The translations under genes and the position numbers were made by a program. Shown here piece after piece: positions 1,272 to 19,066 of a stretch of 39,870 nt of DNA. Every line of letters begins with the position of its first letter. Positions within the stretch are counted from its first letter, which is position 1. The DNA is taken from contig JAZDPB010000147.1 of assembly GCA_043797985.1 (NCBI GenBank), forward strand, positions 1 through 39,870, in the 5' to 3' direction. The notes under the pieces are model-generated. The model was not told the origin of the DNA. It made no database searches and was given only the letters and a program-made list of their open reading frames with translations. Source of the DNA: Chloroflexota bacterium. GTDB lineage: Bacteria > Chloroflexota > Dehalococcoidia > Dehalococcoidales > UBA2162.

Positions 1272-1319
1272 TGGAAAAGTCATAAAATGCGGATGGGAAA
1301 AGTAACAAAATTATAACAT
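1272..1319 (-). promoter_or_regulatory. 48-bp motif copy 1, facing the HAD gene
   Basis: tggaaaagtcataaaatgcggatgggaaaagtaacaaaattataacat; aligns ungapped with copies 2-4; TACAAT on minus strand at 1260-1255. Confidence 0.65.
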
Positions 1320-1346
1320 TCTCACTTTGCGATACCTATTCTTCAA

Positions 1347-1394
1347 ATGTCATAGTTTTGTAACTTTTTTGCTTATTATTTTATGACTTTTCCA
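1347..1394 (+). promoter_or_regulatory. 48-bp motif copy 2, facing hrb
   Basis: atgtcatagttttgtaacttttttgcttattattttatgacttttcca; inverted relative to copy 1; TAAGAT at 1407-1412. Confidence 0.65.
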
Positions 1395-1538
1395 CGATTT
1401 TGCTTCTAAGATAACTCATAGATTCTAGCAGATTTATTCGTGTGATGATAAAATGTGCAGCAGAAAATCCTATGTAAGCTTCCAAAACTAGCCAAAGTAT
1501 CCGAAGGAATCTTAAATTAAATTTTCGAGAGAGGAAAT

Positions 1539-2222
1539 ATGAATTTAAAAGCTCTATATAAATTAGGTTACGGCATGTATGTAATAGGCTCCGGTATGGG
1601 AGACAAGCTCAACGGTCAAATTGCAAACACGGTATTTCAAATAACATCCGACCCGCCGACTATTGCGGTTAGTATTAACAAAAGTAATTTAACGCACCAG
1701 CTTATAAAAGAAAACAAAGTCTTTACGGCTTCTGTTCTCTGTCAGGATACGCCTTTGTCTTTTATCGGTCTCTTTGGATTCAAATCAGGCCGAGATATCA
1801 ACAAACTTGAGGGGATTGATTATAAAATAGGCGAGACCGATGCTCCGGTGATTATCGAAAATACTGTTTCATACATAGAAGCTAAGGTGCTTAAAGAGAT
1901 AGACGTGGGTAGTCATACCATCTTCATCGGCAATATTGTCGCTGCTGACGTTCTCAATGAAAAACCGTGTATGAGTTACGACTATTATCATCAGGTAAAG
2001 CGTGGCAGCACTCCCAAAACTGCCCCGAGTTATATAGCAGAGAAGGTGGAAGGTGCCAATGGGACAAAATATAGATGTACTGTTTGTGGCTATATATACG
2101 ACCCGGACAGTGGGGACCCCGACAATGGCATAAACCCAGGTACCTCCTTCACAGACCTGCCCAATGATTGGGTCTGTCCTGTCTGCGGGGTAAGTAAGAG
2201 TGCGTTTGAAAGAATAGACTGA
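1539..2222 (+). CDS. hrb: High-molecular-weight rubredoxin (flavin reductase domain plus C-terminal rubredoxin)
   Basis: Flavin reductase motifs ([21 protein letters not shown]) plus rubredoxin [12 protein letters not shown]...WVCPVCG. Confidence 0.9.
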
Positions 2223-2311
2223 ACATAAGTCACAACAGGAATACTTCGACTACGACAGAAATAGAAAAGCGTCCGCGCTCATTATTAAAGTCCATATAAA
2301 GGAGCGTAGTT

Positions 2312-2851
2312 ATGAAAGTAAAGATAGTCTTCTACAGCATGTATGGGCATATCTACAGGATGGCTGAGGCTGTGGCGCAGGGCGTCCGTGATGTAGAAGG
2401 AGCCAAGGTAGAACTGCTTCAAGACCTGCCGCCACCCAGAGTATCCCAGCAAGATAGAGTGGTAAATAGCTTACTCAGTCCGGGTTGTGTGATTAAAGGT
2501 CGCGTGGAGAACTCTATCCCGTCGCCAGGTGTCTGGGTCGATGAGCAAGCAGAGGTACGCAATTCGGTGTTGATGCCGAATGTTTTTGTTGGCTACCCCA
2601 GTGTGGTGGATACATGTATCATTGACGAGGGAGTGAATATAGGCAAACTGTGTTACATCGGCTTCGGGAAGTCTCTCCTACCAGGAAATTCCGATATTAC
2701 TATATTAGGGAGAGAAGTTACTGTACCACCTCACACTGCTATAAGGCGTAACTGTACGGTATCTCCTCATGTGGACTCTTCGAGTTTCAGAGACAGTTTA
2801 ATCACCTCGGGTTCCATATCGTACGATATGTGGAATACGTGCCAGAAATAA
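2312..2851 (+). pseudogene. Chimeric ORF: WrbA N-terminus (~37 aa) fused in frame to a GlgC-type C-terminal left-handed beta-helix
   Basis: MKVKIVFYSMYGHIYRMAEAVAQG...VELLQ is the WrbA start. After ~2422, DLPPPRV...VVNSLLSPGCVIKGRVENS..SPGVWVDEQAEVRNSVLM...VVDTCIIDE is the ADP-glucose pyrophosphorylase C-domain. Both catalytic cores are missing. Confidence 0.8.
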
Positions 2852-2913
2852 CGAAGCATCCCGATTACGATAAGGCTATTCAGACGCTGAAAGATTTAGC
2901 GTCTAACGAATAA
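2818..2913 (+). pseudogene. tpx: Thiol peroxidase (Tpx) C-terminal remnant
   Basis: Manual translation in another frame: IVRYVEYVPEITKHPDYDKAIQTLKDLASNE*, matching the Tpx C-terminal signature Y-x-E-x-V-x-E-I-T-x-(H/E)-P-D-Y-D-x-A. No start codon; not in the ORF track. Confidence 0.75.
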
Positions 2914-2929
2914 GAAAGGAGAAGAAAAA

Positions 2930-3403
2930 ATGTACGGAAAAGTCTTGGTGCCATTGGATGGGTCGGAATTAGCGGAGTGCGTGCTTCCTCATGTGGAATC
3001 TATTGCTAAGGGGTGTGGTGCAGGTAGTGTCACGTTTGTTCGTGTGGCTGAGCTGGTTCGTGTACCGGTTGGTGCCGAAGATGGTGGTTTTTATAGTGCC
3101 AAGATATGGCAGCAAATGGAATCAGATTCTAAAAATGCTGCCAGACAGTATATCAACCAGTTGGTGAAAAGAGTCAAATATGATGGCATAAAAGTCCAAT
3201 CAAAGGTTTTGAGTGGCGGGCAAGCGGCCGATATGATTGCTGATTATGCTACAAAAAATGGGGTTGACCTCATCGTCATCGCAACACACGGGCGCTCTGG
3301 AGTAAGCCGGTGGGTTTGGGGAAGCGTAGCCGATAAAATTCTCCGCTCTGCCTGTGTACCTGTTCTAATGGTAAGAGCACCAGGTTGTGAGTGCGGTATT
3401 TAG
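2930..3403 (+). CDS. Universal stress protein (UspA family)
   Basis: KVLVPLDGSELAE; DLIVIATHGRSGVSRWVWGSVADKILR...PVLMV. Confidence 0.93.
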   Translation: MYGKVLVPLDGSELAECVLPHVESIAKGCGAGSVTFVRVAELVRVPVGAEDGGFYSAKIWQQMESDSKNAARQYINQLVKRVKYDGIKVQSKVLSGGQAADMIADYATKNGVDLIVIATHGRSGVSRWVWGSVADKILRSACVPVLMVRAPGCECGI

Positions 3404-3511
3404 GCAGAAAGTAAGTAACCAACGCAGAAATCTAGGTATAATAAAAAGGGGCTGCCCAAAGTAGCCCATAGATAATAATGACAAACGAGGAAACTCGGAA
3501 AGGAGGATGAC

Positions 3512-3907
3512 ATGAAACAATTTGGAGAGCTTTTCCAGAGCGCAGACTGGAAGATAGAGAAGCATATTCCAGTAATAGAATGCGCCAACCAGGTAAAAGC
3601 TGGCGAGTTCTTTCCAGTGAAGGTCACCCTGGGTAAAGAGGTGGTTCATCCCAATACAACCGAACACCATATCCGATGGATTTCAGTGTACTTCCAACCG
3701 GAGGGTGATAAATTCCCCTACCAGATAGGCCACTGTGAGTTTACCGCCCACGGAGAATCGGTGGAAGGACCGAATAAAGGCTCGGTATACACTCACCATG
3801 AAGTCAGCTTGTCTATGAAAACAAGCAAGCCCGGGATTATCTACTCGGTGGCTTTATGCAATATCCATGGGCTCTGGCAATCGGAGAAAGAAATCAAGGT
3901 GTCATAG
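3512..3907 (+). CDS. Class II superoxide reductase (neelaredoxin-like)
   Basis: EKHIP, HPNTTEHHIRWI and CNIHGLW iron-ligand motifs; RBS AAGGAGG. Confidence 0.9.
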   Translation: MKQFGELFQSADWKIEKHIPVIECANQVKAGEFFPVKVTLGKEVVHPNTTEHHIRWISVYFQPEGDKFPYQIGHCEFTAHGESVEGPNKGSVYTHHEVSLSMKTSKPGIIYSVALCNIHGLWQSEKEIKVS

Positions 3908-3938
3908 CGAGGAGAAGGTGGTAGTAGAGTAGGTTGAA

Positions 3939-4187
3939 ATGAACGTATTCGACCCGCTGCTAGTAACCAGGCTGATAGTTATTCTGGGCATCATTAATTT
4001 AGTGACCGGAATGCTAATCTTCTTCTCCTGCCGCTGTCTCCCCGGTTCGAAACTGGGCGGCAGACTGATGAAAAACAAGGCTTATCAACGCTATTACAAA
4101 TACCACTGCTATATCTGGAGGGTCTTCTGGCCCTCGGTGATGATACATGCCATTCTGGCGATAATAATTTTTGGCTGGCCAAGATAA
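3939..4187 (+). CDS. Small two-helix membrane protein
   Basis: Two hydrophobic segments, CRC motif, His residues in YHCYIW and MIHAIL; fits the operon spacing. Confidence 0.7.
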   Translation: MNVFDPLLVTRLIVILGIINLVTGMLIFFSCRCLPGSKLGGRLMKNKAYQRYYKYHCYIWRVFWPSVMIHAILAIIIFGWPR

Positions 4188-4211
4188 ACCTTAGGGTGAA
4201 GGAGGTGAGCG

Positions 4212-5639
4212 ATGTCCGTTGATTTCAATTTTATGGTAGGAGGAGAAGCCGGACAGGGAGTACAATCAGTCGGCTTCTTGTTGGCAAAAGTCTTCGCCCG
4301 CAATGGCTATAGTATCTTCGCCGACCAGGACTATGAGTCAAGAATAAGGGGTGGACACAACTTTTTCCGTGTCAGGGTGAAAGATAGCCGGGTGAGTGCG
4401 ATTGCTGAACCAGTGAACATATTGGTTGCGCTGAACAAGGAGAGTATAGACCTGCACCACAAAGAACTGACTGTAGATGGTATAGCTATCTTCGATGTCG
4501 ATAAGATAAAAGATATTTCTGCCGAAGACAAAATTTTGGGTATACCTTTAGAGAGACTTGCTGAAGAAAAGGCAGGCAACAAGGTTATGACCAATACTGT
4601 AGCTCTTGGTGCCGCTTTAGCACTCGTAGATTGTGACCTGGTAATGGTTCACGCCGAGGATGAAATCGCCGCCGTCAATATGGCTATCGGGGCTGCTTAC
4701 GCCGGTACCAGAGCTATGACTGCTACCTCAGGTAGCGGCTTTTGTCTCATGGTCGAGGGTATAGGACTGGCAGGTATTACCGAGACACCAATAGTAGTGA
4801 TTGATGGACAGCGCCCTGGTCCTGCTGTCGGTCTACCCACCAGAACAGAACAGGGCAACCTTCAGTTTGTGCTTCATGCCCACCACGGCGAATTCCCCAG
4901 GGCTGTCCTTGCCCCAGCTACCATTGAAGATGCTTTCTGGTTAACCGTCAAAGCCTTTAACCTGGCAGAGAAATACCAATTACCGGTAATAATCCTTACT
5001 GACCACCATTTGGCTAGCTCGTATGCTACCGTTGACCCATTCGACATATCTGAGGTAAAGGTTGACCGCGGCCTCTTGTTTCCAGAGAAAGAGGATGACC
5101 CTTCAGAATACAAGAGGCATAAAATAACCCAATCCGGCATTTCGCCACGGGCTTTCCCTGGAATGAGTAAGGCACTGGTAGTCACCGACTGCGATGAGCA
5201 CGATGAAGCCGGACATCTCATTGAGGATGCCGAGACGAGAATGGCACAAGTAGAGAAAAGGATGCGCAAGCTATTTAGCCTCAAGCAAGAGATTAGTCTC
5301 CCCAGCTTATATGGATCCAAAAAAGCTAACACAACCTTGATTGGCTGGGGGAGCACCTATGGAGCTATTCACGAGGCAGTGGATATGCTGCGCCATGATG
5401 GTGCTAGCGTCAACATGCTTCATCTCAATGAACTATGGCCCTTCCCAACCGAGGCTGTTACCGATGCTGTCAGTAAGGCTAATAACAGCTACGTCATCGA
5501 AAACAACGCTACAGGACAACTTGCTCGCCTCATCAAAGCAGAAACGGGATGCGATGTGAGCGGGAAAATTCTAAAATTCGATGGCCGACCTTTCACCCCG
5601 GCTTACATTGCTGAAGCGATGAGAAAGGAGGGATGCTAA
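4212..5639 (+). pseudogene. korA: 2-oxoacid:ferredoxin oxidoreductase alpha(-gamma) subunit with in-frame internal deletion
   Basis: Gamma domain GGEAGQG/DYESRIRGGHN, then ALGAALALVDCDL runs directly into VMVHAEDEIAA...ATSGSGF...QRPGPAVGLPT. The usual GNEA and YPxTP segment is absent. Length 475 aa versus ~570-600 typical. Confidence 0.75.
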
Positions 5640-5640
5640 C

Positions 5641-6426
5641 ATGGTTGAAATATCCGATTATGCCGGATTGAAGCCGACGTGGTGCCCGGGCTGCGGTAAT
5701 TTCGGTATCCTGAGAGCATTAAACCAAGCTCTGGTTGAACTGAAAATCGAGCCTTACAGGGTCTTGCTGGTCTCTGGTATCGGTCAGGCGGGAAAGCTAC
5801 CCCATTACACGAGAGGCAACATATTCAACTCTCTTCATGGAAGACCGATTCCACCGGCCATCGGTGCTAAGATTGCTAATCACGAGCTAGTGGTTATTGC
5901 TATTAGCGGTGATGGGGATGCTTATGGTGAAGGAGGCAACCACTTCCTCCACGCCACACGGCACAATCTTGATATTACTTATCTCGTTCACAATAACCAG
6001 GTATATGGACTCACTAAAGGGCAGGCATCACCCACCAGCGATTTTGGTTTTGTCACCAAGACCACGCCTTATGGGGCAGCTAACCCCATTAACCCCATAG
6101 CTCTGGCGATAATCAGTGGTGCCAGCTTCGTCGCCAGAAGCTTCGCCGGGGATATTAACCACCTCTCTGACATTATAAAAAAAGGCATTACTAATAAGGG
6201 ATTTTCCCTAATTGATATCCTGCAACCCTGCGTTTCATTTAACCATCAAAATACCTTCCAGTGGTATCGCGAACGGGTCTATAAGCTGGAGAGTGAAGAC
6301 GGCTACGACTCCAGTGATAGAAACTACCCTTTTGCCGATGCTTGCCGGTGTGGGTCTGTCTTCTGTCTTTGTAGATATCTTGCGGCACGAAAACAGGCGA
6401 GCTGTGCGTTTGGTAAAAATCTTTAA
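5641..6426 (+). pseudogene. korB: 2-oxoacid:ferredoxin oxidoreductase beta subunit, native C-terminus replaced after ~6320
   Basis: WCPGCGNF, SLHGR, GDGDAYGEGGNH, NNQVYGLTKGQASPT, DILQPCVSF. After GYDSSDR the sequence is unrelated and lacks the typical IP(I/T)GVIY tail. Confidence 0.72.
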
Positions 6427-6466
6427 CAACGAAGTAGTATAATCAGATGGCGAATTAGAGGAATAG
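6317..6466 (+). pseudogene. Possible C-terminal remnant of an AcsE/MetH pterin-binding methyltransferase
   Basis: Frame of ORF 6212..6442 reads IETTLLPMLAGVGLSSVFVDILRHENRRAVRLVKIFNNEVV*SDGELEE*. This resembles the T(F/Y)LxMxxxxGLxxxIxD...xYxD tail of AcsE-like proteins with one nonsense codon. Recognition by eye only. Confidence 0.4.
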
Positions 6467-6537
6467 GTTCCTGCAAAATTAGTATAATAGCATAGGTCGC
6501 TACATTTAAAAATCTTGAATATGCTGAAAGGAGTGAA

Positions 6538-7725
6538 ATGATAATCGAATTAACAAAAGGAGTCTACTGGGTAGGAGTTGTGGACTGGGCACTGAGACAT
6601 TTTCATGGCTATGAACTGACCACACACCGCGGGTCTTCATACAATGCCTATCTTATCACTGATGATAAGACCGTGCTCGTGGATACGGTATGGAGCCCCT
6701 TCCAGGAGCAGCTTATGGCAAATATCCGTGAAATTATCGACCCGGCTAAGATTGATATCGTTGTTGCCAATCATTCGGAAATTGACCATTCTGGTGCTCT
6801 TCCTACAGTGATGCGCCATGCCACCAAGGCTACTGTAATCGTCTCCAAACGGGGCAGAGAGAGTGTGGAGGGACATTTTCACCAGCCCTGGAATTTCCAG
6901 GCAGTCCAGACGGGAGATAAGGTCAGCATTGGTAAGAGAGAGCTTATCTTTGTCGAGGCACCCATGCTACACTGGCCAGATAGCATGTTCACCTACCTGA
7001 CCGGTGATAATATCCTCATGCCGAATGACGCCTTCGGGCAGCACTATGCCAATGCCTTCCGCTTTAATGACGAAGTAAACCAGGAGGAGCTTTATGAGGA
7101 AGCATTGAAGTACTATGCCAATATCCTGACGCCATTCAGCAGTATGGTCTCAAAGAAGATAGATGATGTCCTGGCGCTGAACCTGCCGGTAAATATTATC
7201 GCGCCCAGTCACGGCATCATCTGGAGGAAGGACCCAATCCAGATTGTTAAGAAATATCAGGAGTGGGCGGCTCAAGTGCCGGAGAAAACGGCGGTCATTG
7301 CCTACGACTCCATGTGGGATGGAACCAGACACATGGCAGAGGCTATCGGTGAGGGACTGGCAGCAGAGAATATCCCTTACAAGGCTTTCTTTATGCCGAC
7401 TACGGATAGGAATGATGTCATAACCGAAATATTTAAGACCAAAGCTATTATTATAGGTTCGCCAACCTTCAACAACGGACTGCTACCCACCATAATGCCG
7501 ATACTCGAGGATATTAAGGGGCTTAAATTCCAGAATAAGATAGGAGCCGCCTTTGGCTGCTACGGCTGGAGCGGGGAATCAGTGAAAATCATAGAAGAGC
7601 ATCTGACCCAGAGCAAGATACCTATAACTGTTGAAGGTATCCGTGCCAAGTGGCAGCCGAAATCCGATGACCTGACTAAATGTCGCGAGTTTGGCAGTGC
7701 CATAGCCCGCGCCATTAAAAAGTAA
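6538..7725 (+). CDS. fprA: Flavodiiron protein (class A; O2/NO reductase)
   Basis: GSSYNAY, NHSEIDHSG, PMLHWPDSM, NDAFGQH, APSHG diiron ligands, plus flavodoxin domain YDSMWDGT...AFGCYGWSG. Confidence 0.95.
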   Translation: MIIELTKGVYWVGVVDWALRHFHGYELTTHRGSSYNAYLITDDKTVLVDTVWSPFQEQLMANIREIIDPAKIDIVVANHSEIDHSGALPTVMRHATKATVIVSKRGRESVEGHFHQPWNFQAVQTGDKVSIGKRELIFVEAPMLHWPDSMFTYLTGDNILMPNDAFGQHYANAFRFNDEVNQEELYEEALKYYANILTPFSSMVSKKIDDVLALNLPVNIIAPSHGIIWRKDPIQIVKKYQEWAAQVPEKTAVIAYDSMWDGTRHMAEAIGEGLAAENIPYKAFFMPTTDRNDVITEIFKTKAIIIGSPTFNNGLLPTIMPILEDIKGLKFQNKIGAAFGCYGWSGESVKIIEEHLTQSKIPITVEGIRAKWQPKSDDLTKCREFGSAIARAIKK

Positions 7726-7752
7726 CCCAATAAGGTCATAGTGTGAAAAAGC

Positions 7753-8049
7753 GTGTTCTCTGGTGAGAACCGTCCGGGCATCTATAATCTTCTTGCTATC
7801 TACGAACTGGTCACCGGTCTCAAGCGGTTAGAAATCGAGGCTAAGTTTGCAGATAAAGGGTACGCTTATTCCAAAAAAGAACTGGGTGAAGTAGTCATCG
7901 ATGGACTACGCACCCTACAAACCCGCTGTCAAGAGCTTGCCGCAGACACGGGGTATATTGATTCCTTGCTAGCCGAAGGAGCAGCTAGAGTCAGACCAAT
8001 TGCCGAAAAGACCCTAAACACAGTTAAGGAGTCCGTAGGATTGGGGTGA
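7753..8049 (+). pseudogene. trpS: Tryptophanyl-tRNA synthetase C-terminal (anticodon-binding) fragment
   Basis: ENRPGIYNLLAIY...GYAYSKKELGEVV...YIDSLLAEGAARVRPIAEKTL..VKESVGL matches the TrpRS C-terminus. HIGH/KMSKS domain absent, with only 27 nt after the fprA stop. Confidence 0.8.
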
Positions 8050-8108
8050 TGGCTAACCGAGTTGAATTCTGCTAAACTTGCTTACAGAAATGTTTTAAGG
8101 AGAATGAT

Positions 8109-10550
8109 ATGGATATCAAGAAATATGAGGTGCCAGTTGATAAACTTCACTGGGAATGCGACCCCAAACTGTTCGACTTCGAATGTACCAAAGACTTGGC
8201 CCCACTTCGCGAGTTTATTGGTCAGGAACGGGCGACACGAGCCGTAGAGTTTGGTCTAAATATGGTCAACGCCGGGTATAACATCTATGTTGCCGGACTG
8301 ACTGGGACAGGAAAGACATCCATGGTGAAGTCCTATATTGAAAGGGTTATCAAGGAAAGAGGACAGCGAGGAGAAACCTTTGTTCTGGACGACTGGTGTT
8401 ACCTCTACAATTTTAAGGAGCCTGACAGTCCTCAAATAGCCAGCCTGCCACAGGGAAAGGGCAAAGCCTTTCGAGACGAGATTGCCGACCTCCTTAATAA
8501 AATACGCCAGGCGCTGGGGCAAGCTTTCTCCAGCGAGGAGTATAAAAACCAGAGACAGAAGACGGTTGAAGAAGCACAAACTGAGCAGCAGAAGTTGTTT
8601 GAAGAAATATCACGTGATGCCCATCGTCAAGGCTTTACTCTTCAGATTACCCCTGTCGGGCCGGTCTTGATTCCCCTGAAAGATGACCGCCCCATGCAGG
8701 AACAAGAATATCTTGACTTGGACGAAGATGCCAGGAAAAAGCTTGAGTCGAAGCAAAATGAGCTGCGCAAGAAACTGAAAGCAAATTTTGAGGCTGCCGG
8801 CAACGTGCAAGCAAAGACTATGGAGCGATTACAGAAGACAGATAAAGACATCGGCGAATACACCGTCTCCGGCCTATTCGGCTCGTTGCTTGAGCAATAT
8901 TCTCAATGGTCGAAGATAAGTCAGTATCTTGTTGACCTCAAAGCCTATGTACTCGATAACCTCGAACTCTTCAAGGGCACCGAAGAACCGATAAATCCGG
9001 TGTTCGGGGTTCCGGCCAGTCAGGTTATGGGGGGGAGAAATCCGTTTCTTCCGTTTCAGGTCAATGTTTTTGTGGATAACAGTGAAGCCAAAGGACCTCC
9101 GGTGGTTGTCGAGAGCAATCCCAACTTTGGCAATATGTTCGGCAAAATTGAACGGCGGTTCCTCTTTGGCGGCTACCTCAGCGACCATACTATGTTAAAG
9201 GCAGGCTCTCTGGGTAAGGCTAACGGAGGCTATCTGCTGGTCAGCGCAAATGATGTGCTGATAAATCCTGGCGTCTGGCCGGCGCTTAAGCGGGCGATTA
9301 AAAACAAGGAGGTCCGGATAGAAGACCCCTTTGAGCAGTTCGGGCTTATTGCGCCACAGGGATTGAGGCCGGAACCAATGCCGATAAATGTCAAGGTCGT
9401 TCTTACCGGTGATGCTATGCTCTACCAGCTATTGTCGATGTATGACGAAGACTTCTGGGAGATTTTTAAGGTCAAAGCCGACTTTAATTTTGAGATTGAG
9501 AAAACTAAAGATAATATGCTGGCATACGCCGCCTTTCTCTCTGGGTGTTGTGAGGAATGCGAAGCCAGACATTTTGACCCCAGCGGTGTTGCCAAGGTCA
9601 TCGAGTATTCTGTCAGGATAGTAGCCGACCAGGAGCGGCTGTCCTCAAGATTTGCCCAGGTCAAGGACTGGATTGAGGAAGCCAACTACTGGGCCAATCA
9701 GGAAAACGCCAAGTACATCTCCGCCAGTCATGTGCAGAAAGCTATCGATGAGAGGCTATTCAGACATAACCTTCTTGACGAACGAATCCAGGATATGATA
9801 AATCGCGGCACTATCATGATAGACGCTGAGGGCACCGTAATCGGTCAGATAAATGGATTGAGCGTTTACACCCTCGGCGACATTACATTTGGCAAGCCGT
9901 CAAGAATTACTGCCAAGACCTTTCTGGGACGTGGTGGCGTTATCAACATCGAACGAGAGTCGCAACTGAGCGGTCCGATTCATAATAAGGGAGTCATGAT
10001 TTTAAGTGGCTACCTTGGCTGGAAATACGCCCAGGATAAACCTCTTTCGCTCTCCGCTAGCCTGTGTTTTGAGCAGTCTTACGAAGGCGTAGAAGGCGAT
10101 AGTGCCTCCTCTACCGAGCTGTATGCCATCCTATCCAGTCTGTCGGACATACCTGTAAAGCAAAACATAGCTGTAACTGGCTCGGTTAACCAGACCGGTG
10201 AGATTCAACCGATAGGTGGCGTAAACCAGAAAATAGAAGGCTTCTTTAAGGTATGCCAGGCTAAAGGACTAACGGGTGACCAGGGAGTGCTAATACCACA
10301 TCAGAACCTGAAAAATCTCATGCTGCGTGAGGACGTGGTTGAAGCCGTCCGTAAAGGTCAGTTTCATATTTACTCTGCCAAGACCATTGATGGGGGTATT
10401 GAGATACTGACCGGCGTCCCGGCAGGCGAAAGGCAGAAAAGTGGCACCTATCCCAAGGAAACGGTCAATTATCTAGTTGATAAGAAACTCAAGGAAATGG
10501 CAGATCGGCTAAAGGGCTTTTACGCTGAGGAGAAAAAGGAAGCAAAATAG
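8109..10550 (+). CDS. Lon-family ATP-dependent protease-like protein (LonB/LonC type)
   Basis: IGQERA, Walker A GLTGTGKT, KANGGYL, FKVKADF, Lon_C domain GQINGL...FEQSYEGVEGDSAS...IGGVNQKIEGF (Ser-Lys dyad). Confidence 0.92.
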   Translation: MDIKKYEVPVDKLHWECDPKLFDFECTKDLAPLREFIGQERATRAVEFGLNMVNAGYNIYVAGLTGTGKTSMVKSYIERVIKERGQRGETFVLDDWCYLYNFKEPDSPQIASLPQGKGKAFRDEIADLLNKIRQALGQAFSSEEYKNQRQKTVEEAQTEQQKLFEEISRDAHRQGFTLQITPVGPVLIPLKDDRPMQEQEYLDLDEDARKKLESKQNELRKKLKANFEAAGNVQAKTMERLQKTDKDIGEYTVSGLFGSLLEQYSQWSKISQYLVDLKAYVLDNLELFKGTEEPINPVFGVPASQVMGGRNPFLPFQVNVFVDNSEAKGPPVVVESNPNFGNMFGKIERRFLFGGYLSDHTMLKAGSLGKANGGYLLVSANDVLINPGVWPALKRAIKNKEVRIEDPFEQFGLIAPQGLRPEPMPINVKVVLTGDAMLYQLLSMYDEDFWEIFKVKADFNFEIEKTKDNMLAYAAFLSGCCEECEARHFDPSGVAKVIEYSVRIVADQERLSSRFAQVKDWIEEANYWANQENAKYISASHVQKAIDERLFRHNLLDERIQDMINRGTIMIDAEGTVIGQINGLSVYTLGDITFGKPSRITAKTFLGRGGVINIERESQLSGPIHNKGVMILSGYLGWKYAQDKPLSLSASLCFEQSYEGVEGDSASSTELYAILSSLSDIPVKQNIAVTGSVNQTGEIQPIGGVNQKIEGFFKVCQAKGLTGDQGVLIPHQNLKNLMLREDVVEAVRKGQFHIYSAKTIDGGIEILTGVPAGERQKSGTYPKETVNYLVDKKLKEMADRLKGFYAEEKKEAK

Positions 10551-11557: not shown

Positions 11558-11582
11558 TTATTTTTCCTGCCCTCCAAGAAAG

Positions 11583-11626: not shown

Positions 11627-11658
11627 TTTATGATAGTCAATAGAAAGGAGGTACTACG

Positions 11659-12123
11659 ATGGCTGCAATTACTATCAGAAGAAGTCCAAGCCTAGCTTTG
11701 ACTTGTGTAGAACCTACTTCAATGAGCCTTCTTGATGAAATTGAGAGGCTCGCCAGTGATATCTGGGAATCCGAGACACCGGTAGTTTATACTCATATGC
11801 ATCCTCGTCTGGACATGTTTGAAGAGAACGACGAACTCGTAATGAGAGCAGAACTACCCGGTATGCGGAAGGAAGATATCGATATCAGTCTTGAGAATGA
11901 TTGCTTATCTATCAAGGCTGAAAAGAAGCAAGAAGAAGTATCTGAGAACGCTACTTATTATTCTTGTGAGCGCTGCTTTGGTACTTACTCCCGTTCGGTA
12001 TCGCTTCCATTCCCGGTCAATGGCGACAAAATCTCAGCTACCTACGAGAATGGCTTGCTGGAGATAAGGCTCCCCAAGGCTGAAGAAGCCAAAGCCAAGC
12101 ACATCGAAGTCAAGGTAAAATAA
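11659..12123 (+). CDS. Hsp20/alpha-crystallin small heat-shock protein
   Basis: AELPGMRKEDIDI, ERCFGTYSRSVSLP, ATYENGLLEIRLPK. Confidence 0.94.
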   Translation: MAAITIRRSPSLALTCVEPTSMSLLDEIERLASDIWESETPVVYTHMHPRLDMFEENDELVMRAELPGMRKEDIDISLENDCLSIKAEKKQEEVSENATYYSCERCFGTYSRSVSLPFPVNGDKISATYENGLLEIRLPKAEEAKAKHIEVKVK

Positions 12124-12199: not shown

Positions 12200-13657
12200 C
12201 TAACCCTTGATGACACCAATTGGTCTGGTCCTGGCAACTATCTTGGAGATGCCCGTGCTATGGGCGACACCAACCACTGAGGTCACATCCTTATAGGCTT
12301 CAGAAGCCTCCTCAGCAAGACCTGACAGACTGCCAGCCCGAACGGTTATGCCACGTGATTCGAGTGCTTCGAGCACGTCTTTTCCCTTTAGCAAACGCTT
12401 GGCGGCAGCACGGCTTCTTACCCTACCCGCTCCATGGCAGGTAGAGCCAAAGGTCTCCTTCATAGCCAGTTCCGTACCTACCAGCAGATAGGATACACGC
12501 CCCATATCGCCGGGGATGAGGACGGGCTGTCCAATCTTCGAATACTTTGCCGGCACATCGGGATGGCCGGGCAGGAATGCCCTGGTAGCACCCTTACGAT
12601 GCACGCAGAGCATCTCTTTATGACCACTCACCTCGTGCTCTTCAATCTTGGCTATGTTGTGCGCTACATCATAGATTAGCTCCAACCCAACGTCTTCTTC
12701 ACACTTACCCAATACGTTACAAAAGGTCTCTCTGACCCAATGCATTATGCACTGGCGATTTGCCCAGGCATAATTGGCAGCGCACTTCATGGCAGAGAGG
12801 TAAGCCTTGCCCTCTGGGGAGGACAGCGGGGCACAGGCAAGCTGCCGGTCAGGTACCTCAATACCGTAACGCCTCATAGCGCTCACCATCTCCTTGATAT
12901 AGTCGTCAGCAGTCTGATGTCCCAGGCCGCGAGAACCACAATGGATGAGCAACATTACCTGTCCGACTTGCTCCACGCCCATAACTTTAGCTATTTCCTG
13001 CTCATAGATATTGTCGACTAAAGCCACCTCAAGAAAGTGATTACCCGAGCCTAACGTACCCAATTGCGGTATGCCACGTTCCTTCGCTCTGCCGCTTACT
13101 TTGGCAGGGTCGGCTCCAGACATCTCTCCCCTTTCCTCCGTAGTCTCCAGGTCCTCATGCCTTCCGTACCCGCGCCCAACTGCCCAGCGCGAGCCTTTGA
13201 CCAGGACTTCATCGATTTCCCCCGAACGAAGCTTTATTCTACCCTGGGAGCCTAAACCCGAAGGCACACTCTTATACAGAGCATCCATAAGCTGTTTTAT
13301 CTTCGGGCGGACTTCTTCTTGAGTCAAATTTGTGCGCAGGAGCCTCACCCCACAGTTGATATCAAAACCAACACCACCAGGAGAAACCACGCCGTCCTCC
13401 ATCCGCATGGCAGCCACACCGCCTATGGGGAAGCCATATCCCCAGTGGATATCTGGCATAGCCAGAGAGTAACGAACTATCCCGGGCAGAAATGCCACAT
13501 TGGCAACCTGTTCGGGAGCCTGCTCACTCAGAATGTTTTCGAGCATATCCCGGCTGGCATAAATCAGACCCGGCACCCGCATGCCAGTTTTATAGCTCGC
13601 GGGAATTCGCCAGTGATATTCATCAACCTTTTCTAGGGGACCATTCCACCTCGCCAT
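12200..13657 (-). CDS. rtcB: RNA-splicing/repair ligase RtcB (archaeal/eukaryote-like long type)
   Basis: MPDIHWGYGFPIGG, VGFDINCG, GSGNHF, HCGSRG, HNIAK, HRKGAT, HGAGR. Confidence 0.96.
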   Translation of the reverse strand: MARWNGPLEKVDEYHWRIPASYKTGMRVPGLIYASRDMLENILSEQAPEQVANVAFLPGIVRYSLAMPDIHWGYGFPIGGVAAMRMEDGVVSPGGVGFDINCGVRLLRTNLTQEEVRPKIKQLMDALYKSVPSGLGSQGRIKLRSGEIDEVLVKGSRWAVGRGYGRHEDLETTEERGEMSGADPAKVSGRAKERGIPQLGTLGSGNHFLEVALVDNIYEQEIAKVMGVEQVGQVMLLIHCGSRGLGHQTADDYIKEMVSAMRRYGIEVPDRQLACAPLSSPEGKAYLSAMKCAANYAWANRQCIMHWVRETFCNVLGKCEEDVGLELIYDVAHNIAKIEEHEVSGHKEMLCVHRKGATRAFLPGHPDVPAKYSKIGQPVLIPGDMGRVSYLLVGTELAMKETFGSTCHGAGRVRSRAAAKRLLKGKDVLEALESRGITVRAGSLSGLAEEASEAYKDVTSVVGVAHSTGISKIVARTRPIGVIKG

Positions 13658-13674
13658 AGTATCCTCCCAATCAA

Positions 13675-14085
13675 TTATATATCAAAGATAACCTGTACCT
13701 GGTTTTTCTCCTTGTCTACCTTGAGCATATGATAGGTAGCAGATTTGATACCTATCTTCAGGTGATGCCGCGACGAGTCATATTTTTCACCATGACATAT
13801 TGCCTTCAGATTGTAGCCGTCAAATTCGCTGATATCAAACCTTTTGAGAAGAAGCATTTCTACATCAAAAAGGTAAATAAGACGGTTAAGCCATTCGAAT
13901 AATAGCGCCTCTGAGTCTCCTTCGCTGACCTCTATAACACGATTCTCCACCCCCCTCACCGTTCTAAGGTCGGCAATGATAGAGAACATACCATAGGCCG
14001 CATTGGCAAATGCTTCAGCCAGCGTGCTCCCATAGGCAACCAGACCGGTATCGGCTGTGTGTTCTATAAGCTTAAATCTTTTCAC
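13675..14085 (-). CDS. Archease (RtcB cofactor)
   Basis: EHTAD, LLFEWLNRLIY, IKSATYH, C-terminal VIFDI; adjacent to rtcB. Confidence 0.93.
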   Translation of the reverse strand: MKRFKLIEHTADTGLVAYGSTLAEAFANAAYGMFSIIADLRTVRGVENRVIEVSEGDSEALLFEWLNRLIYLFDVEMLLLKRFDISEFDGYNLKAICHGEKYDSSRHHLKIGIKSATYHMLKVDKEKNQVQVIFDI

Positions 14086-14516
14086 ATGTACTCTTTCTTC
14101 AGCTTTTTGAAGTCCCTTTCAAACCTTTCCCTTGCTTTAGGAAAGCGCATCGCCGCAGCCGGATGATAGGTCTCTATATACTTAATAGCCTCCAGCCTGG
14201 GTGTTTTCCAGGCAATCTTACCCATCAAAACCACGATTTTAGGTTTCACTCGTCTAATCTCTTCGAGCAAATAAGGCATCCAATCACTGAGTTCTTGTGC
14301 AGTCGGCTGCCTGTTCCCATGAGTTGTTTCTTTGATGACACTGGTTATGTACAATTCGCCCCGGTCAATTTCATTTTTCTTTAGCATCGCATCAAGATAT
14401 TTCCCCGATTTTCCCACGAATGGCCTGCCTTGTTTAGCTTCTTCACTACCCGGATTTTGCCCAACCAACATAATTCTTGCGTTTGAAAGCCCTTCTCCAG
14501 CAACGAATACACCCAT
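14082..14516 (-). CDS. Uracil-DNA glycosylase superfamily protein (short, family 4-like, no FeS cysteines)
   Basis: GEG..NARIMLVGQNPG..E...GRPFVGKSG, YITSVIK, TYHPAAA; contains no Cys; GTGA overlap with archease. Confidence 0.85.
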   Translation of the reverse strand: MGVFVAGEGLSNARIMLVGQNPGSEEAKQGRPFVGKSGKYLDAMLKKNEIDRGELYITSVIKETTHGNRQPTAQELSDWMPYLLEEIRRVKPKIVVLMGKIAWKTPRLEAIKYIETYHPAAAMRFPKARERFERDFKKLKKEYM

Positions 14517-14563
14517 TCGCTTTAACTCCGGTTTCTGTGGTTTTTGAGTTCTGCTACAGGTAG

Positions 14564-15496
14564 CTAAGCAGTCCCACCTGTTGTGGTATCGTGTCGGCCC
14601 ATTTGGCAGATGGTACAGATGTTACCGGAAGGACAGGTTTCACATTCAATCTGTAGTGTAGTGTGGTTGATGTTGTAGCGTTGGGCTAGCTCTTGTCTGA
14701 CCAACTGTAAAATTCCAACGCCTTCGCTTACCATCTGGTTATCAATCACAAGGTGAGCACTCAAGGCATAAATATTCGAAGTGATTGTCCATATATGGAT
14801 ATCGTGTACTGCATTCACGCCGGGAATGCTCCTGATTATGTCAATTACCTTGGCTATCTCGATATGGCTGGGTACTGCCTCCAGTAGAACATCCGCCGAC
14901 TCGCTGACAATCCTCACTGCTCCCCACAATATGATTACACCGATAGCAATAGCCACGATGGTATCGGCAAAATACCATCCGGTCAACATAATGACTATGC
15001 CGGTAATAATCACCCCGACAGAAGATATGGTATCGCCCATTATATGCCAGAAAGCCGCTTTTACATTCAGGCTTCGATGGCTGGCTTTATTGAGCAATAT
15101 CACTCCGCCAAGGTTGGCAACTAAACCGATTATCGCTATCGTTAGCATTATCGGAGCTTTTACTGGTGACGGCTCAAGAAATCGCTGGTAAGCTTCATAG
15201 AAGATAAAAATGGATACCAAGACCAGGATAGTGCCATTGGCTAAAGCAGCAAGTATTTCGAAACGGTGATAGCCGAAGGTCTTGGTCGCTGTTGCTGGTC
15301 GGCGAGCCAGTGTCATCGCAAACAAGCTAAGTCCGAGAGCAAGCGAATCGACAAACATGTGCCCCGCGTCGCTAAGCAGAGCCAGACTTCCACTTAAGAT
15401 ACTGCCAACAATCTCCGCCACCATGATTACCAGGACGATGGCAAGAGTAACCTCCATGCGGCGGTAATCTGTGAAAGCCTCGTGATGATTATCCAT
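14564..15496 (-). CDS. czcD: Cation diffusion facilitator (Zn/Co/Cd efflux)
   Basis: SLALLSDAGHMFVD, TFGYHRFEILAA, AFWHIMGD, VHDIHIWTI, HTTLQIE. Confidence 0.92.
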   Translation of the reverse strand: MDNHHEAFTDYRRMEVTLAIVLVIMVAEIVGSILSGSLALLSDAGHMFVDSLALGLSLFAMTLARRPATATKTFGYHRFEILAALANGTILVLVSIFIFYEAYQRFLEPSPVKAPIMLTIAIIGLVANLGGVILLNKASHRSLNVKAAFWHIMGDTISSVGVIITGIVIMLTGWYFADTIVAIAIGVIILWGAVRIVSESADVLLEAVPSHIEIAKVIDIIRSIPGVNAVHDIHIWTITSNIYALSAHLVIDNQMVSEGVGILQLVRQELAQRYNINHTTLQIECETCPSGNICTICQMGRHDTTTGGTA

Positions 15497-15552
15497 ATTT
15501 TCTGCGTGTACTTCTCTTCAACTGATGCTACTTCAAAAAGGTGAGATTCAAT

Positions 15553-16921
15553 TTATGGATTCGCTAAGTTGCTCAACGTCCTCACTATTAATTCAGGGAG
15601 TGCAGGATGAATGTGCAGGCCAGCCTGTATCTGGTCAATATTTCCGCCGGATGCCATGGCGTTTATCACCTCTTGTATCAGGGTGGGCGTGTAAGGACCG
15701 ATGATGTGAAAATCCAATATCTTCTGGCTCTTTGCCTCTACAACCGCTTTGGCGAAACCGTTTTCTTCCATCATTGCTTCGCCTTTGGCGACATCCATAT
15801 ACTTTGCCTTGCCTACCAGAACCTTGTGCGTTTTTTTAGCAGTTTCCTCTGTCAACCCAACGGAGGCGATTTGCGGATGGGAATAGACAGCATGTGGAAT
15901 AGCACTGTAGTCCATTTTGACTTTGCTGCCATGTATTGCGTTATGCACTGCCAGCACTGACTCTCTGTTAGCAACGTGGGTAAACATCTGCTGGCCATTG
16001 ACATCTCCTACAGCATATATGTTGTTTTTAGTAGTCTCAAGATACTCATTAACCTTGATAAAATCTCTTTTGTCAAGCTCGACACCCGTCTTTTCCACTT
16101 TCAGTAAGTCGGCATTAGACCTACGCCCCACTGCGACCAGGATTCTCTGCGCCGTGAATTCCTTTCTTTCGTTTGCTTTTAAGTCATTGACTCCGACGGT
16201 AATACCACGGCCGTTACCCTTCACTTCTTCAACCTGAACATTAGTGTAAACATCCATACACTGACTCAACTCTTTCTTTAAAAGCTCCGATATTTCAGGC
16301 TCCTCGGCAAGAACAAGCCGGTCAGCCATTTCCAAGATAGTAACCTTTGTACCCATGGCAGCAAAAAAGTGACCATACTCCACGGCAATATAACCACCAC
16401 CGATAATGAGGAGGCTTTCCGGCTTTTCCTTCAGTTGGAGAAGGGTTTCATTAGTCAGGAAGTCCACTCCATCAAGACCTTTTATTGCTGGTATCAGAGG
16501 GCGTGAACCGGAAGCGATAAAAATCTTATCGCCTTTTATTCTATCACTGTTAACCTCAATCGTATAGTCATCAACAAAGCGACCCTCGCTCTCAAAGAAG
16601 TCCAGGGTCTTGGCGTGCGAAAGCCCGTGTCTCATCTGTTGCTGGTTTTCGTGCACGGACCTTCTCATTCGCTCCATGATGGAGTTGAAGTCAATGTTCC
16701 GTATATCGGCTTCGATGCCCAGCTTTTTGGCTTCCTGTATTTCAGCTATCCTGTCAGCAGCGAATATAAGCATCTTGGATGGTATGCAGCCCAGATTGGG
16801 GCAGGTAACCCCCGAGCGGACCTTTATCCACCAAAGCAACATCCATACCGTGGACCAGAGCTTCTTCAACGATATTCATCCCGCAGCCTGAACCAATGAC
16901 AATGACATCATATTCCTTCAT
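15553..16921 (-). pseudogene. Dihydrolipoamide dehydrogenase-like disulfide reductase, +1 frameshift at ~16807-16813
   Basis: Likely start ATG 16921 (or 16927): MKEYDVIVIGSGCG...VALVDKGPLGG, then one extra base (GGG GGT T ACC TGC) before TCPNLGCIPSK. The rest (IIGGGYIA, AVGD, HIHPALPE) is in ORF 15553..16869. Confidence 0.85.
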
Positions 16922-16951
16922 ATTCATACCTCTCTCTGTTTACTACGGAAT

Positions 16952-18326
16952 TTAATCAGTTGTGACTGGAAACCCAGCAGCCACCCACGCCTTTACACTA
17001 CCGAGGACATTATAAACCCTGGGATAACCAGCCCGGAGCAATATGCTGGCGCCAAGCCCGGCCCGATGTCCCACATTGCAGATTACTGCTACCGGCCTGT
17101 TTTTGGGGACTTCTCCTAGCCTCTGTTCGAGGTATCCAATATAGATGTGAAGCGAACCTGCTATGTGTCCTGACTCCCACTCGTCCTGCCCCCGGGTATC
17201 CAGTACAAGTAAATCTTCGTTGCGGTCGAGCATAGCTTTAAGCTGGTGAACCGAGAGTAGTAGCAGATTCTCGGTGGGAAAGCCAGCATTATACCAGCCC
17301 TCGGTGCCATCCCTGAAATAGCCAATAATCCGGTCATAGCCGGCATGTATCAGGTAACGTACCGCTCTTTACAGGTGAGATTGGTCTTCTAAAACGAGAA
17401 GGACGGGTTTATCATAGGGCAGTACCCAGCCTCCGAAGACAGGGAGCCCTTCCAGCCAGATACTGTAGGCGCCCTTAATGTGAGCGCCCCCCGAAAGCGG
17501 CCGGCTCACTTGTATCAACCACTATCACCCCGCCGTCTATTTCTTTCCTAAACTCGGTTGGAGTGAGCGGATTTGGAAGTGGCAGGCACCCGAGCAGTGG
17601 CGGACCTTCCAGGTTGAGCTTTTCCATTTGCTGGAAGTAATATGGTTTCTCTGGCTGTTCTGCTACCTTGTATTTAACAAATTCTTTTTTATTCTTCATC
17701 TGAAGCACGGGGTTCTGCCTCCGTTCTATTCCGATGGTACTTTCGTCCCTGTTGGCAATATGCATGCCGCACACTGAGCCAACACCATGAGCCGGGCAAA
17801 TGATGACGCCATCGCCCAGCGGTAGAAGCCTATTGAAAATACTACCGTAGAGGTTCGATGCCAGCCTTGATACTTCTTCAGTTCCGTAGAGGTCGGTTCG
17901 CCCCACATCATTCACAAATAGCGTATCGCCGGTGAATATCATTACCGTGGCTTTACCGGTAGCTAAATCCTCCACAGCGTAGGAAACACTCTCGTCGGTG
18001 TGCCCCGGCGTGCTGATAGCCGTCAGCTTGAGGTAGCCGATGTGGAATTGCTGCCCATCCCCAAATGTATTACCATACTTCCAATTAATTCCCGAACCAT
18101 GGTAGATTTCAGCTCTGGTAATGCTGCTCAACTCGATAGAGCCGATTACGTAGTCTTCATTACGGTGAGTTTCAAAGATATATCTGATTTTCAGTCTTTT
18201 TTCTTGTGCTGAGTCCACATAAATCTGGCAGTCACGTCGTAGGTCAATCACGGCAGCATCACTACCAGAGCCAAGCAGGTAAGAATTATGAGCGATACCT
18301 GCTGACTTAATCCGCTCGAATATCAT
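16952..18326 (-). pseudogene. MBL-fold hydrolase / tandem rhodanese fusion (persulfide dioxygenase-sulfurtransferase-like), frameshift plus nonsense
   Basis: FETHRNED, TPGHT, FTGD, PAHG. Removing one G from the G6 run (17487-17492) restores FGGAHIKGAYSIWLEG...; in-frame TAA at 17371-17369; the frame then continues into ORF 16952..17233 (GHIAGS...ICNVGHRA). Confidence 0.85.
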
Positions 18327-18341
18327 ACAATTCCCTCAGGC

Positions 18342-18599
18342 CTAACTGCGTTTACTTTTTATTTTGTCAGCAAACTCTTTTACCTGGTATTCCCACTCAC
18401 GGGTTTCCAGGTCTACCGAGGTCTCTTTGTCATCAGTGCAGGTAACAATATTGACATCACCACCACTTCCTACGAAATTAGCACAGCTGTCGGTCTGCTG
18501 AGTCACTTCCATCCCATAGCCACTAGGACCGAATACCTCAATGGCTTTTTTCACCACATCCTCCAGTTTACTCTTCGTTCTGACATTCAATCTTAGCAT
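18342..18599 (-). CDS. Hypothetical protein (~85 aa)
   Basis: RBS AAGGAGG precedes ATG at 18599; first gene of the leftward operon; C-terminal TREWEYQVKEF; no family recognised. Confidence 0.7.
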   Translation of the reverse strand: MLRLNVRTKSKLEDVVKKAIEVFGPSGYGMEVTQQTDSCANFVGSGGDVNIVTCTDDKETSVDLETREWEYQVKEFADKIKSKRS

Positions 18600-18700
18600 C
18601 TGTCCCTCCTTCATCCAGTCTTTAACAGACTCTACCTTTGAACAAATCTACTGTGCACGAATTAATAACACAGCCCGACTATATGATAGTTTGCCTGCTA

Positions 18701-18748
18701 TAGAGAAGTCATAAAATATCGATAGGAAAAATTACAATAATATGACAT
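18701..18748 (-). promoter_or_regulatory. 48-bp motif copy 3, facing the leftward operon
   Basis: tagagaagtcataaaatatcgataggaaaaattacaataatatgacat; TATCAT on minus strand at 18688-18683. Confidence 0.6.
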
Positions 18749-18765
18749 TTTTACGCCTATTCATA

Positions 18766-18808
18766 AGTGAGAAAAGTCACAGACGCAGGCTACCTATAGA
18801 TTTATAAT
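18766..18808 (+). promoter_or_regulatory. Crp-type class II promoter
   Basis: aGTGA-gaaaag-TCACa centred at 18773.5; perfect TATAAT at 18803-18808 places it at -41.5. Confidence 0.72.
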
Positions 18809-18814
18809 TTAAAG

Positions 18815-18913
18815 ATGGAGGTGAATCGACTGAAGTTCTTTAAGAAAATGAATGTTCCCGAGTTCCTCGATTGCAAAAGGCTCTTAGTTAAGTGGAGCAT
18901 CTGGCGAGGGTAA
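18815..18913 (+). CDS. Putative small peptide (27-32 aa) or sRNA
   Basis: MEVNRLKFFKKMNVPEFLDCKRLLVKWSIWRG*. ATG at the predicted +1, or GGAGGTGA RBS with CTG start at 18830. Promoter upstream and hairpin downstream. Confidence 0.4.
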   Translation: MEVNRLKFFKKMNVPEFLDCKRLLVKWSIWRG

Positions 18914-18943
18914 CCAGAAGGGAGGAATAGTGGAACGAAATCA

Positions 18944-18994
18944 GGGAGCAGACCTCACTAGCTTTTTATCTTAAGAGGTTTGCTCTCCTTTTTT
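18944..18994 (+). terminator. Intrinsic terminator of the small transcript
   Basis: GGGAGCAGACCTC pairs with GAGGTTTGCTCTC (13 bp, two G-U pairs valid only on the + strand), followed by C-T6; loop is long (18 nt). Confidence 0.6.
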
Positions 18995-19018
18995 ATTCCA
19001 ACCATAGCTGATAGCAAA

Positions 19019-19066
19019 ATGACATAGTTTTGTAACTTTTATTGCTGCCATTTTATGACTTTTCCA
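19019..19066 (+). promoter_or_regulatory. 48-bp motif copy 4, facing the nrdJ remnant
   Basis: atgacatagttttgtaacttttattgctgccattttatgacttttcca; TAAACT at 19079-19084. Confidence 0.65.

Follow-up and report, generated by a model that had tools for sequence, protein, structure and literature searches.

A 48-bp element, present in four copies in a 39,870-nucleotide stretch of DNA from a Chloroflexota bacterium of the order Dehalococcoidales (contig JAZDPB010000147.1 of assembly GCA_043797985.1, here contig C93, called the window throughout its full length), is most likely the docking site of a two-component response regulator encoded on another contig of the same genome. The element probably functions as a regulator-dependent sigma-70 promoter in which P0001, a response regulator of the OmpR/PhoB family, would read its binding sites. 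In many uncultured Dehalococcoidia, the motif is found ahead of stress and oxygen-defence genes. These bacteria, abundant anaerobes of aquifers and sediments and for the most part uncultured, possess very few sigma factors, and to our knowledge nothing is known of the way in which their stress defences are controlled. Among the papers listed on stress regulation in Dehalococcoidia, judged by titles and abstract openings, no description of the motif or of its regulon was found. The genome under study (G000) comprises 1.73 Mb distributed over 186 contigs, with a G+C content of 48% and a completeness of 76%.

The motif copies of the window

The four copies are located in two divergent intergenic regions and align without gaps, at the coordinates and on the strands attributed to them in an earlier note on this DNA. 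Copy c1 (1272..1319, minus strand) faces a HAD hydrolase gene, c2 (1347..1394, plus strand) a flavin-reductase-rubredoxin gene, c3 (18701..18748, minus strand) a cluster made of a 90-aa open reading frame (ORF) and of genes for metallo-beta-lactamase-fold, rhodanese and pyridine-nucleotide-disulfide oxidoreductase proteins, and c4 (19019..19066, plus strand) a nrdJ-like gene, each copy being oriented toward the nearest gene as the note had claimed. Two conserved blocks, ATGTCATAGTTTTGTAACTTTT and ATTTTATGACTTTTCCA, are separated by a variable 9-nt spacer, and 32 of the 88 aligned columns, which cover the 48 motif columns and their flanks, are invariant in the four copies, the flanks themselves being unconserved. 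With up to 2 mismatches allowed, the degenerate 14-mer TTTTRTRACTTTTC has 10 matches in the window, compared to a mean of 1.17 and a maximum of 4 matches in 100 shuffled sequences, none of which attained 10.

The TAnnnT hexamers assigned to these copies by the same note are all present, 11-12 nt past the motif end: TACAAT of c1 (1255..1260, minus strand) at 11 nt, and TAAGAT of c2 (1407..1412, plus strand), TATCAT of c3 (18683..18688, minus strand) and TAAACT of c4 (19079..19084, plus strand) at 12 nt. At c3 (18701-18748, minus strand), the combination ATGACT-18-TATCAT was reported independently by a consensus promoter scan. Copy c2, which consists of a distal box (1347-1368), a spacer and a proximal box (1378-1394) on the plus strand, scores 67.8 bits with the position weight matrix (PWM) and 56.7 bits with the sequence model, and its transcription start site (TSS) is predicted, from the position of the hexamer, near 1419.

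The distal boxes of c1 and c2 lie 27 bp apart (1320-1346), and c3 and c4 are separated by 270 bp (18749-19018). Within the latter spacer lie a TATAAT (about 18803-18808), a possible ORF of 32 codons and, behind a short GC-poor stem, a T-run; between 18700 and 19160, neither an Rfam match beyond chance level (E 0.6) nor a terminator call was obtained. An extra TGTGACTTTTC half-site occurs at 18771-18784 on the minus strand, 34 bp upstream of the first half-site of c3.

Distribution of the motif in the genome and its relatives

The scan of the genome and of its relatives, suggested in the earlier note, was performed in the genome with a weight matrix of the four 48-mers and with separate matrices for the distal and proximal boxes. 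The 48-mer matrix detected 13 sites, two of them with a 10-nt spacer, and all 13 distal-box matches of at least 24 bits returned by the box matrix belong to composite sites. The three inspected matches to the proximal box only (contigs C32, C68 and C139), devoid of both a distal box and a -10, are ascribed to chance. The genomic copies were checked for -10 boxes and for gene-oriented placement, and all of the 13 sites, found by a model without -10 columns, exhibit both: each is oriented to a gene start and followed by a TAnnAT-like hexamer 11-14 nt past the motif.

Relatives were searched with a model (A2, R1) built from the 13 sites on sequence alone. The motif was found in 33 of 60 relatives, namely 25 of the 36 belonging to the same family and 8 of the 24 from other families of the order, with a copy number reaching 44 per genome (G031). 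In a sample of the class consisting of 150 evenly drawn genomes, nine contained a motif match at E <= 1e-6, and the six complete genomes of family f10 in this sample gave no match. The oriented sites with their -10 hexamers, together with the occurrence in relatives, support the idea of a multi-site, regulator-dependent promoter put forward in the earlier note. The unrecognised regulon postulated there is supported by the comparative evidence, but it extends far beyond the four units of the window.

Anatomy of the promoter

The window, five other loci of this genome and 108 loci of relatives together yielded 116 non-redundant composite sites, which come from about 35 genomes. In 94 of the 116 sites, a TAnnnT hexamer begins exactly 12 nt past the motif, the next-best offset accounting for 12 sites, and the median distance between the motif end and the start codon is 86 nt. 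The column profile, built from the 99 sites with a 9-nt spacer, consists of a block AAAATGTCATA at positions -2 to 8, a block TTTTGTAAYTTTTT at positions 10-23, a variable, pyrimidine-rich segment at positions 24-31, a block ATTTTATGACTTTT at positions 32-45, an invariant A48 accompanied by T49, and TAnAAT at positions 61-66; elsewhere, information is near zero. Since the flanks carry no information, the element is a short regulatory signal rather than a mobile repeat.

With the -10 hexamer TAnAAT set at -12 to -7, the distal box is composed of the half-sites TGTCAT and TGTAAC, repeated with an 11-bp period between about -71 and -55 and centred near -62, which is the position of a class-I activator. 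Both half-sites (positions 2-7 and 13-18, respectively) are near invariant. The proximal box TTTTATGACTTTT extends from about -40 to -28 over the -35 region, with TATGAC at -37 to -32 and ATGACT located 18 bp from the -10. One reading makes it a direct repeat of the second half-site, displaced 23 bp downstream, and both the 11-bp pair and the 23-bp repeat (TTTTGTAACTTTT/TTTTATGACTTTT) previously distinguished in the window are visible in the 99-site profile. In addition, the A/T at -25/-24 repeats the AT of TATGAC 11 bp downstream (positions 37-38 and 48-49). Half-sites of 6-7 bp that recur directly every 10-11 bp, as expected of OmpR/PhoB-type promoters, are thus present in the element.

Content of the regulon

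In this genome, the putative targets located in the window are the cluster past c2, the HAD hydrolase, the nrdJ-like gene and the cluster past c3. Outside the window, the target units encode rubredoxin, DUF2231, glutaredoxin-PDZ, MsrB and MsrA proteins in one unit; tandem Usp; DUF1540; rhodanese; an O-methyltransferase; a dienelactone-hydrolase fragment with a flavodoxin; a cupredoxin with a thioredoxin-reductase-like protein; a metallothionein-like protein with a ferritin; and a 99-aa ORF with a hibernation-factor/cold-shock-domain protein. Divergent from the motif-driven O-methyltransferase stands a gene for a Fur-family regulator, probably Zur, followed by ZnuA (L005:9883-11324 on contig C173), and two regulatory systems therefore share a single intergenic region.

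In relatives, the first ORFs past the sites (96 in one set, plus others) were submitted to a Pfam scan, and recurrent families were recognized among them. These are Usp, Hsp20, DUF1540, rubrerythrin, ferritin, DJ-1/PfpI, rubredoxin and Rieske protein, together with a nucleotidyl-transferase-hexapeptide protein, trypsin-like and Lon-like proteases, CBS and glyoxalase-fold proteins and single-domain receivers. A 285-aa sigma-70-family gene is motif-driven in two genomes (G030 and G032). The content of the regulon is coherent from genome to genome, and the targets represent a general and oxidative stress set rather than a pathway-specific one.

Genes for single-domain, CheY-like receivers are motif-driven in four genomes (L119:4305-4682, L125:7892-8281, L132:1750-2127 and L141:1618-2010) and adjoin the regulator gene in three of them; such receivers could serve as a phosphate sink or as a phosphorelay partner. 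A small protein of about 72-84 aa with four cysteines (CPxCK ... HDCGS..PCRLYR), which belongs to no Pfam family, is encoded by the first gene past the motif in six loci (L127:6182-6412, L129:5650-5886, L121:7814-8032, L124:5163-5390, L019:1274-1489 and L031:1233-1487), three of which directly adjoin the response regulator.

The candidate regulator and a candidate kinase

The candidate binder P0001 is a 237-aa response regulator of the OmpR/PhoB type (Pfam Response_reg and Trans_reg_C), encoded between two motif sites on contig C150 (25977-26687, corresponding to L002:8975-9688, minus strand). Seven genes of the assembly, that of P0001 included, encode a Trans_reg_C domain. According to the alignment, its receiver domain possesses the usual acidic pocket, with the acidic pair, Asp54, Ser81 and Lys103. 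Orthologs of P0001 (57-84% identity, at least 289 bits) were detected in 24 of the 60 relatives, with a clear gap to the paralogs, which reach at most 49% identity and 233 bits. All 24 ortholog-bearing relatives are motif-positive, and none of the 27 motif-negative relatives has an ortholog. In the class sample, an ortholog (at least 56% identity) occurs in 12 genomes, 8 of which contain the motif (E <= 1e-6), compared to 1 of the 138 others.

The regulator gene is also physically associated with the motif. In the relatives, 23 of the 26 ortholog genes are followed on the same strand by a copy, at a distance of about 25-120 nt from the stop codon; this also applies to this genome, and the genes beyond this regulator-linked copy differ among genomes. 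In the class sample, the motif lies 3' of the regulator in 9 of the 12 assessable genes (three weak or partial, one 295 nt away). A search for loci resembling that of the regulator returned three close ones, the other 77 being paralogs from many phyla; the closest named records are metagenome-assembled genomes (MAGs) titled Dehalococcoidales, Dehalococcoidia or Chloroflexota, and a motif 3' of the regulator occurs in 3/3 named MAG loci, compared to 0/9 paralog loci.

Upstream of the regulator gene on contig C150 (L002:9780-10040), a G+C-rich segment contains long pairable C-runs and G-runs (cccccccctgcccccttccc ... gggaagggggcg), and the own promoter of the regulator resembles TTGACA-N18-TATTCT. 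Past the regulator-linked motif (L002:8352-8853, contig C150), a 28-codon ORF precedes a dienelactone-hydrolase fragment which matches profile positions 92-194 of 217 only, and the gene found there looks decayed or rearranged.

A candidate kinase emerges from the relatives. A MASE3-PAS histidine kinase gene is divergent from the regulator in G023, and a triple-PAS kinase gene precedes it in G018. At E <= 1e-60, the G023 kinase has homologs in 23 of the 60 relatives; all 23 are motif-positive, and the 27 motif-negative relatives have none. In 10 genomes the homologs are encoded at most 3.5 kb from the regulator, and a motif also follows several of the kinase genes.

Proposed mechanism and alternative explanations

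These observations suggest a model in which the 48-bp element would be the upstream half of a promoter of the housekeeping sigma (sigma-70 type). A PAS or MASE3-PAS histidine kinase would phosphorylate the regulator in response to a signal, probably oxygen or redox stress, and the regulator would bind as head-to-tail dimers, one on the distal pair in the class-I position and another on the proximal box, where it would replace the canonical -35 as in Pho-box promoters. The bound regulator would then recruit RNA polymerase, contact with which would impose the rigid 18-bp geometry, and would switch on the 13 promoters of this genome (up to 44 in relatives). The functions served would comprise oxygen detoxification, thiol and iron-sulfur repair, Usp, Hsp20, proteases, ribosome hibernation and the B12-type ribonucleotide reductase (RNR). 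It is the promoter geometry, read from the sequence, that points to an activator role of P0001. Among sequencing runs, no RNA dataset matching this DNA was found, the 5 runs retrieved being groundwater DNA with a word share of at most 0.21.

Several points speak against this model. The R1 model used in the relatives included the -10 columns, and the count of -10 hexamers in these genomes is partly selected for. The half-site assignment is ambiguous because the proximal box, besides being readable as a direct copy, can also be read as an inverted first half-site (GTCATA ... TATGAC). Nine motif-positive relatives, i.e., G002 with 10 sites, G010 with 7, G016 with 4, G014 with 3 and five others with one each, possess no detectable ortholog of P0001; most of them are 69-82% complete, but G008 and G025 reach 91-93%. 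No 3' motif was found at the ortholog genes G013:C168, G011:C16 and G026:C99 of the relatives, nor at G111:C77, G115 and G208 of the class sample. Co-occurrence with the regulator among related genomes is non-independent evidence, and in principle the regulator might be a co-located neighbour belonging to the regulon rather than the binder. Finally, the regulator is orphaned in this genome (76% complete), where a search for the kinase brought up no close homolog; the best match (C54:11677-12381) is 49% identical to it across the kinase core (E 1e-58).

As the main alternative, the same regulator could use the same sites as a repressor, binding cooperatively to the distal and proximal boxes and occluding the -35 of a self-sufficient ATGACT-18-TAnAAT promoter until it is released under stress. 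This proposal draws on the overlap of the proximal box with the -35 region, on the TGAC that ATGACT shares with TTGACA and on a -10 near consensus, and RpaB sites near the TSS are reported to repress (PMC6525291). Yet a single exact offset, i.e., the 18-bp spacer, in 94 of the 116 sites and a distal pair centred near -62 are both features typically seen in stereospecific activation, 14 nearly invariant positions are more than a plain -35 would need, and the single-domain receivers of the regulon fit a negative feedback on an activator. None of these objections is decisive, but repression is judged unlikely.

A larger departure would be to regard the response regulator as a mere neighbour and to assign the element to another binder, such as an alternative sigma factor with an extended -35, the Crp/Fnr protein of the window or some other protein. 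The motif-driven 285-aa sigma-70-family gene of G030 and G032, the location of the Crp gene within the c2 cluster and the nine motif-positive genomes devoid of a regulator ortholog could be invoked in its favour. However, this genome shows two Sigma70_r2 genes only (477 aa and 194 aa), the -10 corresponds to the housekeeping TAnAAT rather than to an ECF-type hexamer, and the reach of a sigma factor falls short of -72, all of which makes a binder of this kind, or a sigma factor acting without the regulator, improbable. Promoters for extracytoplasmic function (ECF) sigma factors consist of a -35 with AAC and a CGT-type -10 about 16-17 nt downstream, without a housekeeping -10; here, TGTAAC and TGAC are 19 nt apart and TAnAAT occurs at a fixed offset, and an ECF-sigma promoter was accordingly discarded. 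The Crp protein was rejected on its phyletic pattern: only 4 of the 60 relatives have a close ortholog (at least 59% identity), and a tier of 34-44% identity is present in motif-negative genomes too. In addition, the distal box is a direct repeat without dyad, not a palindrome of the Crp type, and the element does not look like a Crp/Fnr operator. The earlier note had already set this protein apart, and the lack of co-distribution with the motif agrees with that view.

It is scarcely credible that the element is a structured one (a hairpin or leader RNA) or the remnant of a mobile repeat instead of a protein-binding promoter module. GTCATA (positions 3-8) and TATGAC (positions 36-41) do form an inverted repeat, but a hairpin or RNA element is disfavoured because the variable pair 5/39 shows no compensatory change (2 T-A compared to 21 C-A and 12 T-G). 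Moreover, the element is located upstream of the -10, its flanks are unconserved, no Rfam match was obtained and every copy is oriented to a gene start.

Genes downstream of the motif in the window

The first gene past c1 encodes the HAD-family hydrolase (537..1217, minus strand), and in the relative G020 a HAD gene also adjoins the regulator. The same-strand cluster past c2 (1539..12123, plus strand) encodes a flavin reductase-rubredoxin, a hexapeptide protein, a Usp protein, a desulfoferrodoxin-type superoxide reductase, an 82-aa ORF, the alpha and beta subunits of a 2-oxoacid:ferredoxin oxidoreductase, a flavodiiron protein, a 98-aa ORF, a LonB/LonC-like protease, the Crp/Fnr regulator, a ferredoxin and Hsp20. 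In relatives, Lon-like, Hsp20, Usp and PFOR-like genes possess motif copies of their own.

The same-strand cluster past c3 (12200..18614, minus strand) comprises the 90-aa ORF and the genes for the metallo-beta-lactamase-fold protein, the rhodanese, the Pyr_redox_2 oxidoreductase, a CDF transporter, UDG, archease and RtcB, and the co-transcription of its distal genes is uncertain because of a 242-nt gap at 17234-17474.

The nrdJ-like gene past c4 (19141..19911, plus strand) is truncated, its 256 aa covering an ATP-cone and the RNR all-alpha N-domain. It is followed by a class-V aminotransferase gene, and no catalytic barrel is encoded within the window. A full-length RNR (861-aa frame) occurs on contig C107 of the same genome, where no motif site was found. 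The copy of the window could have arisen as a truncated duplicate or through an assembly join, or it could be a regulatory fragment that stands alone. Motif-driven full-length B12-type RNR genes are present in G011, G052 and G021, and in G011 (L038) a motif-driven Pyr_redox_2 gene is divergent from nrdJ, matching the arrangement of the window. A tRNA gene (329-400, minus strand; 67 bits), unrelated to the motif, was the sole match of an Rfam scan of the whole window.

Significance for Dehalococcoidia

The element offers a readable promoter code which predicts a stress and oxygen-defence regulon of 13 to 44 promoters per genome and which is useful for the annotation of Dehalococcoidia genomes. 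One regulator and one kinase family are named, both testable in vitro without culture, and a stress context is assigned to proteins of unknown function such as DUF1540, the small four-cysteine protein and the 90-99-aa ORFs. Binding of a two-component regulator to direct repeats is in itself a familiar and unsurprising mechanism.

A tentative extension, considered rather doubtful, is that throughout the class one PAS/MASE3 kinase and an OmpR-type regulator form the master switch of a general-stress, dormancy-like programme, acting via an unusual promoter with three half-sites and a rigid 18-bp geometry. In this scheme, a copy of the target promoter would be physically coupled to the 3' end of both the regulator gene and the kinase gene. 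If so, this programme would span oxygen detoxification, Usp, Hsp20, proteases, ribosome hibernation and the B12-type RNR, and the conserved regulator-operator cassette may hold the regulator beside its first target or spread as a unit.

Comparison with known regulatory systems

Among the curated families of NCBIfam, RpaB, MtrA, YycF/WalR and PhoB score best with P0001, none of them attaining its cut-off, and the best relatives of solved structure are MtrA, RegX3 and the mycobacterial PhoP. The recognition helix LRTWVSRLR of P0001 differs at exposed positions from the corresponding VNVHVQRLR of MtrA, and P0001 therefore represents a distinct subfamily. The nearest families of P0001 are reported to read direct repeats of the TGTNAN type.

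In the Pho box of E. coli, which is read by PhoB, TGTCA-type half-sites recur directly every 11 bp. The present system resembles it by the OmpR/PhoB-family regulator, the 11-bp repeats of TGTCA type and the site placed over the -35 at a fixed distance upstream of a good -10. In contrast, P0001 reaches 172 bits on the PhoB equivalog TIGR02154 (cut-off 296), an extra distal pair occurs near -62 and the proximal box possesses a single strong half-site. No phosphate genes (pst, pho) occur among the downstream genes examined, and in this respect the regulon does not look like a Pho regulon.

The consensus of WalR/VicR (YycF) is reported as TGTWAH-N5-TGTWAH (PMC4168254). Compared with this consensus, the distal TGTCAT-N5-TGTAAC fits 11 of the 12 specified positions and shares the 11-bp period. 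YycF is the third-best NCBIfam match of P0001, but with 198 bits on NF040534 (cut-off 340) P0001 falls short of the equivalog, and the regulon found here concerns stress and redox functions instead of cell-wall metabolism. The cyanobacterial RpaB is reported to read the HLR1 element, made of (G/T)TTACA(T/A)(T/A) direct repeats, and to activate from sites about 50 nt upstream whereas sites at the TSS repress (PMC6525291). RpaB gives the best NCBIfam match, it governs a redox and light-stress regulon, and its GTTACA-type repeats correspond to the distal box on the other strand. However, P0001 scores 222 bits on NF045944 (cut-off 330) and is not an RpaB equivalog by this measure, the HLR1 repeats follow a 10-bp period (8-nt repeats with a 2-nt gap) instead of 11 bp, and the present element is a two-box composite at one fixed position.

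CosR of Campylobacter jejuni is reported to be an orphan OmpR-type regulator of oxidative stress (PMC3139631). It resembles the present regulator by its OmpR type, the lack of an adjacent kinase, as in this genome, and the control of oxidative-stress genes; it belongs to an unrelated lineage, and a kinase is adjacent in 10 of the relatives studied here.

With respect to gene content, the DosR/DevR dormancy regulon of Mycobacterium tuberculosis, which comprises Usp proteins, Hsp20/alpha-crystallin, a B12-type RNR, a ferredoxin, CBS-domain proteins and a hibernation factor, is similar to the motif-driven set, and both would be governed by one two-component regulator. DosR, however, is a NarL-family regulator that recognizes a palindromic box, whereas P0001 carries the Trans_reg_C domain of the OmpR family instead of a NarL/LuxR-type domain and the element consists of direct repeats. 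Unlike the host of DosR, the bacteria considered here are strict anaerobes, and their regulon includes oxygen-detoxifying enzymes.

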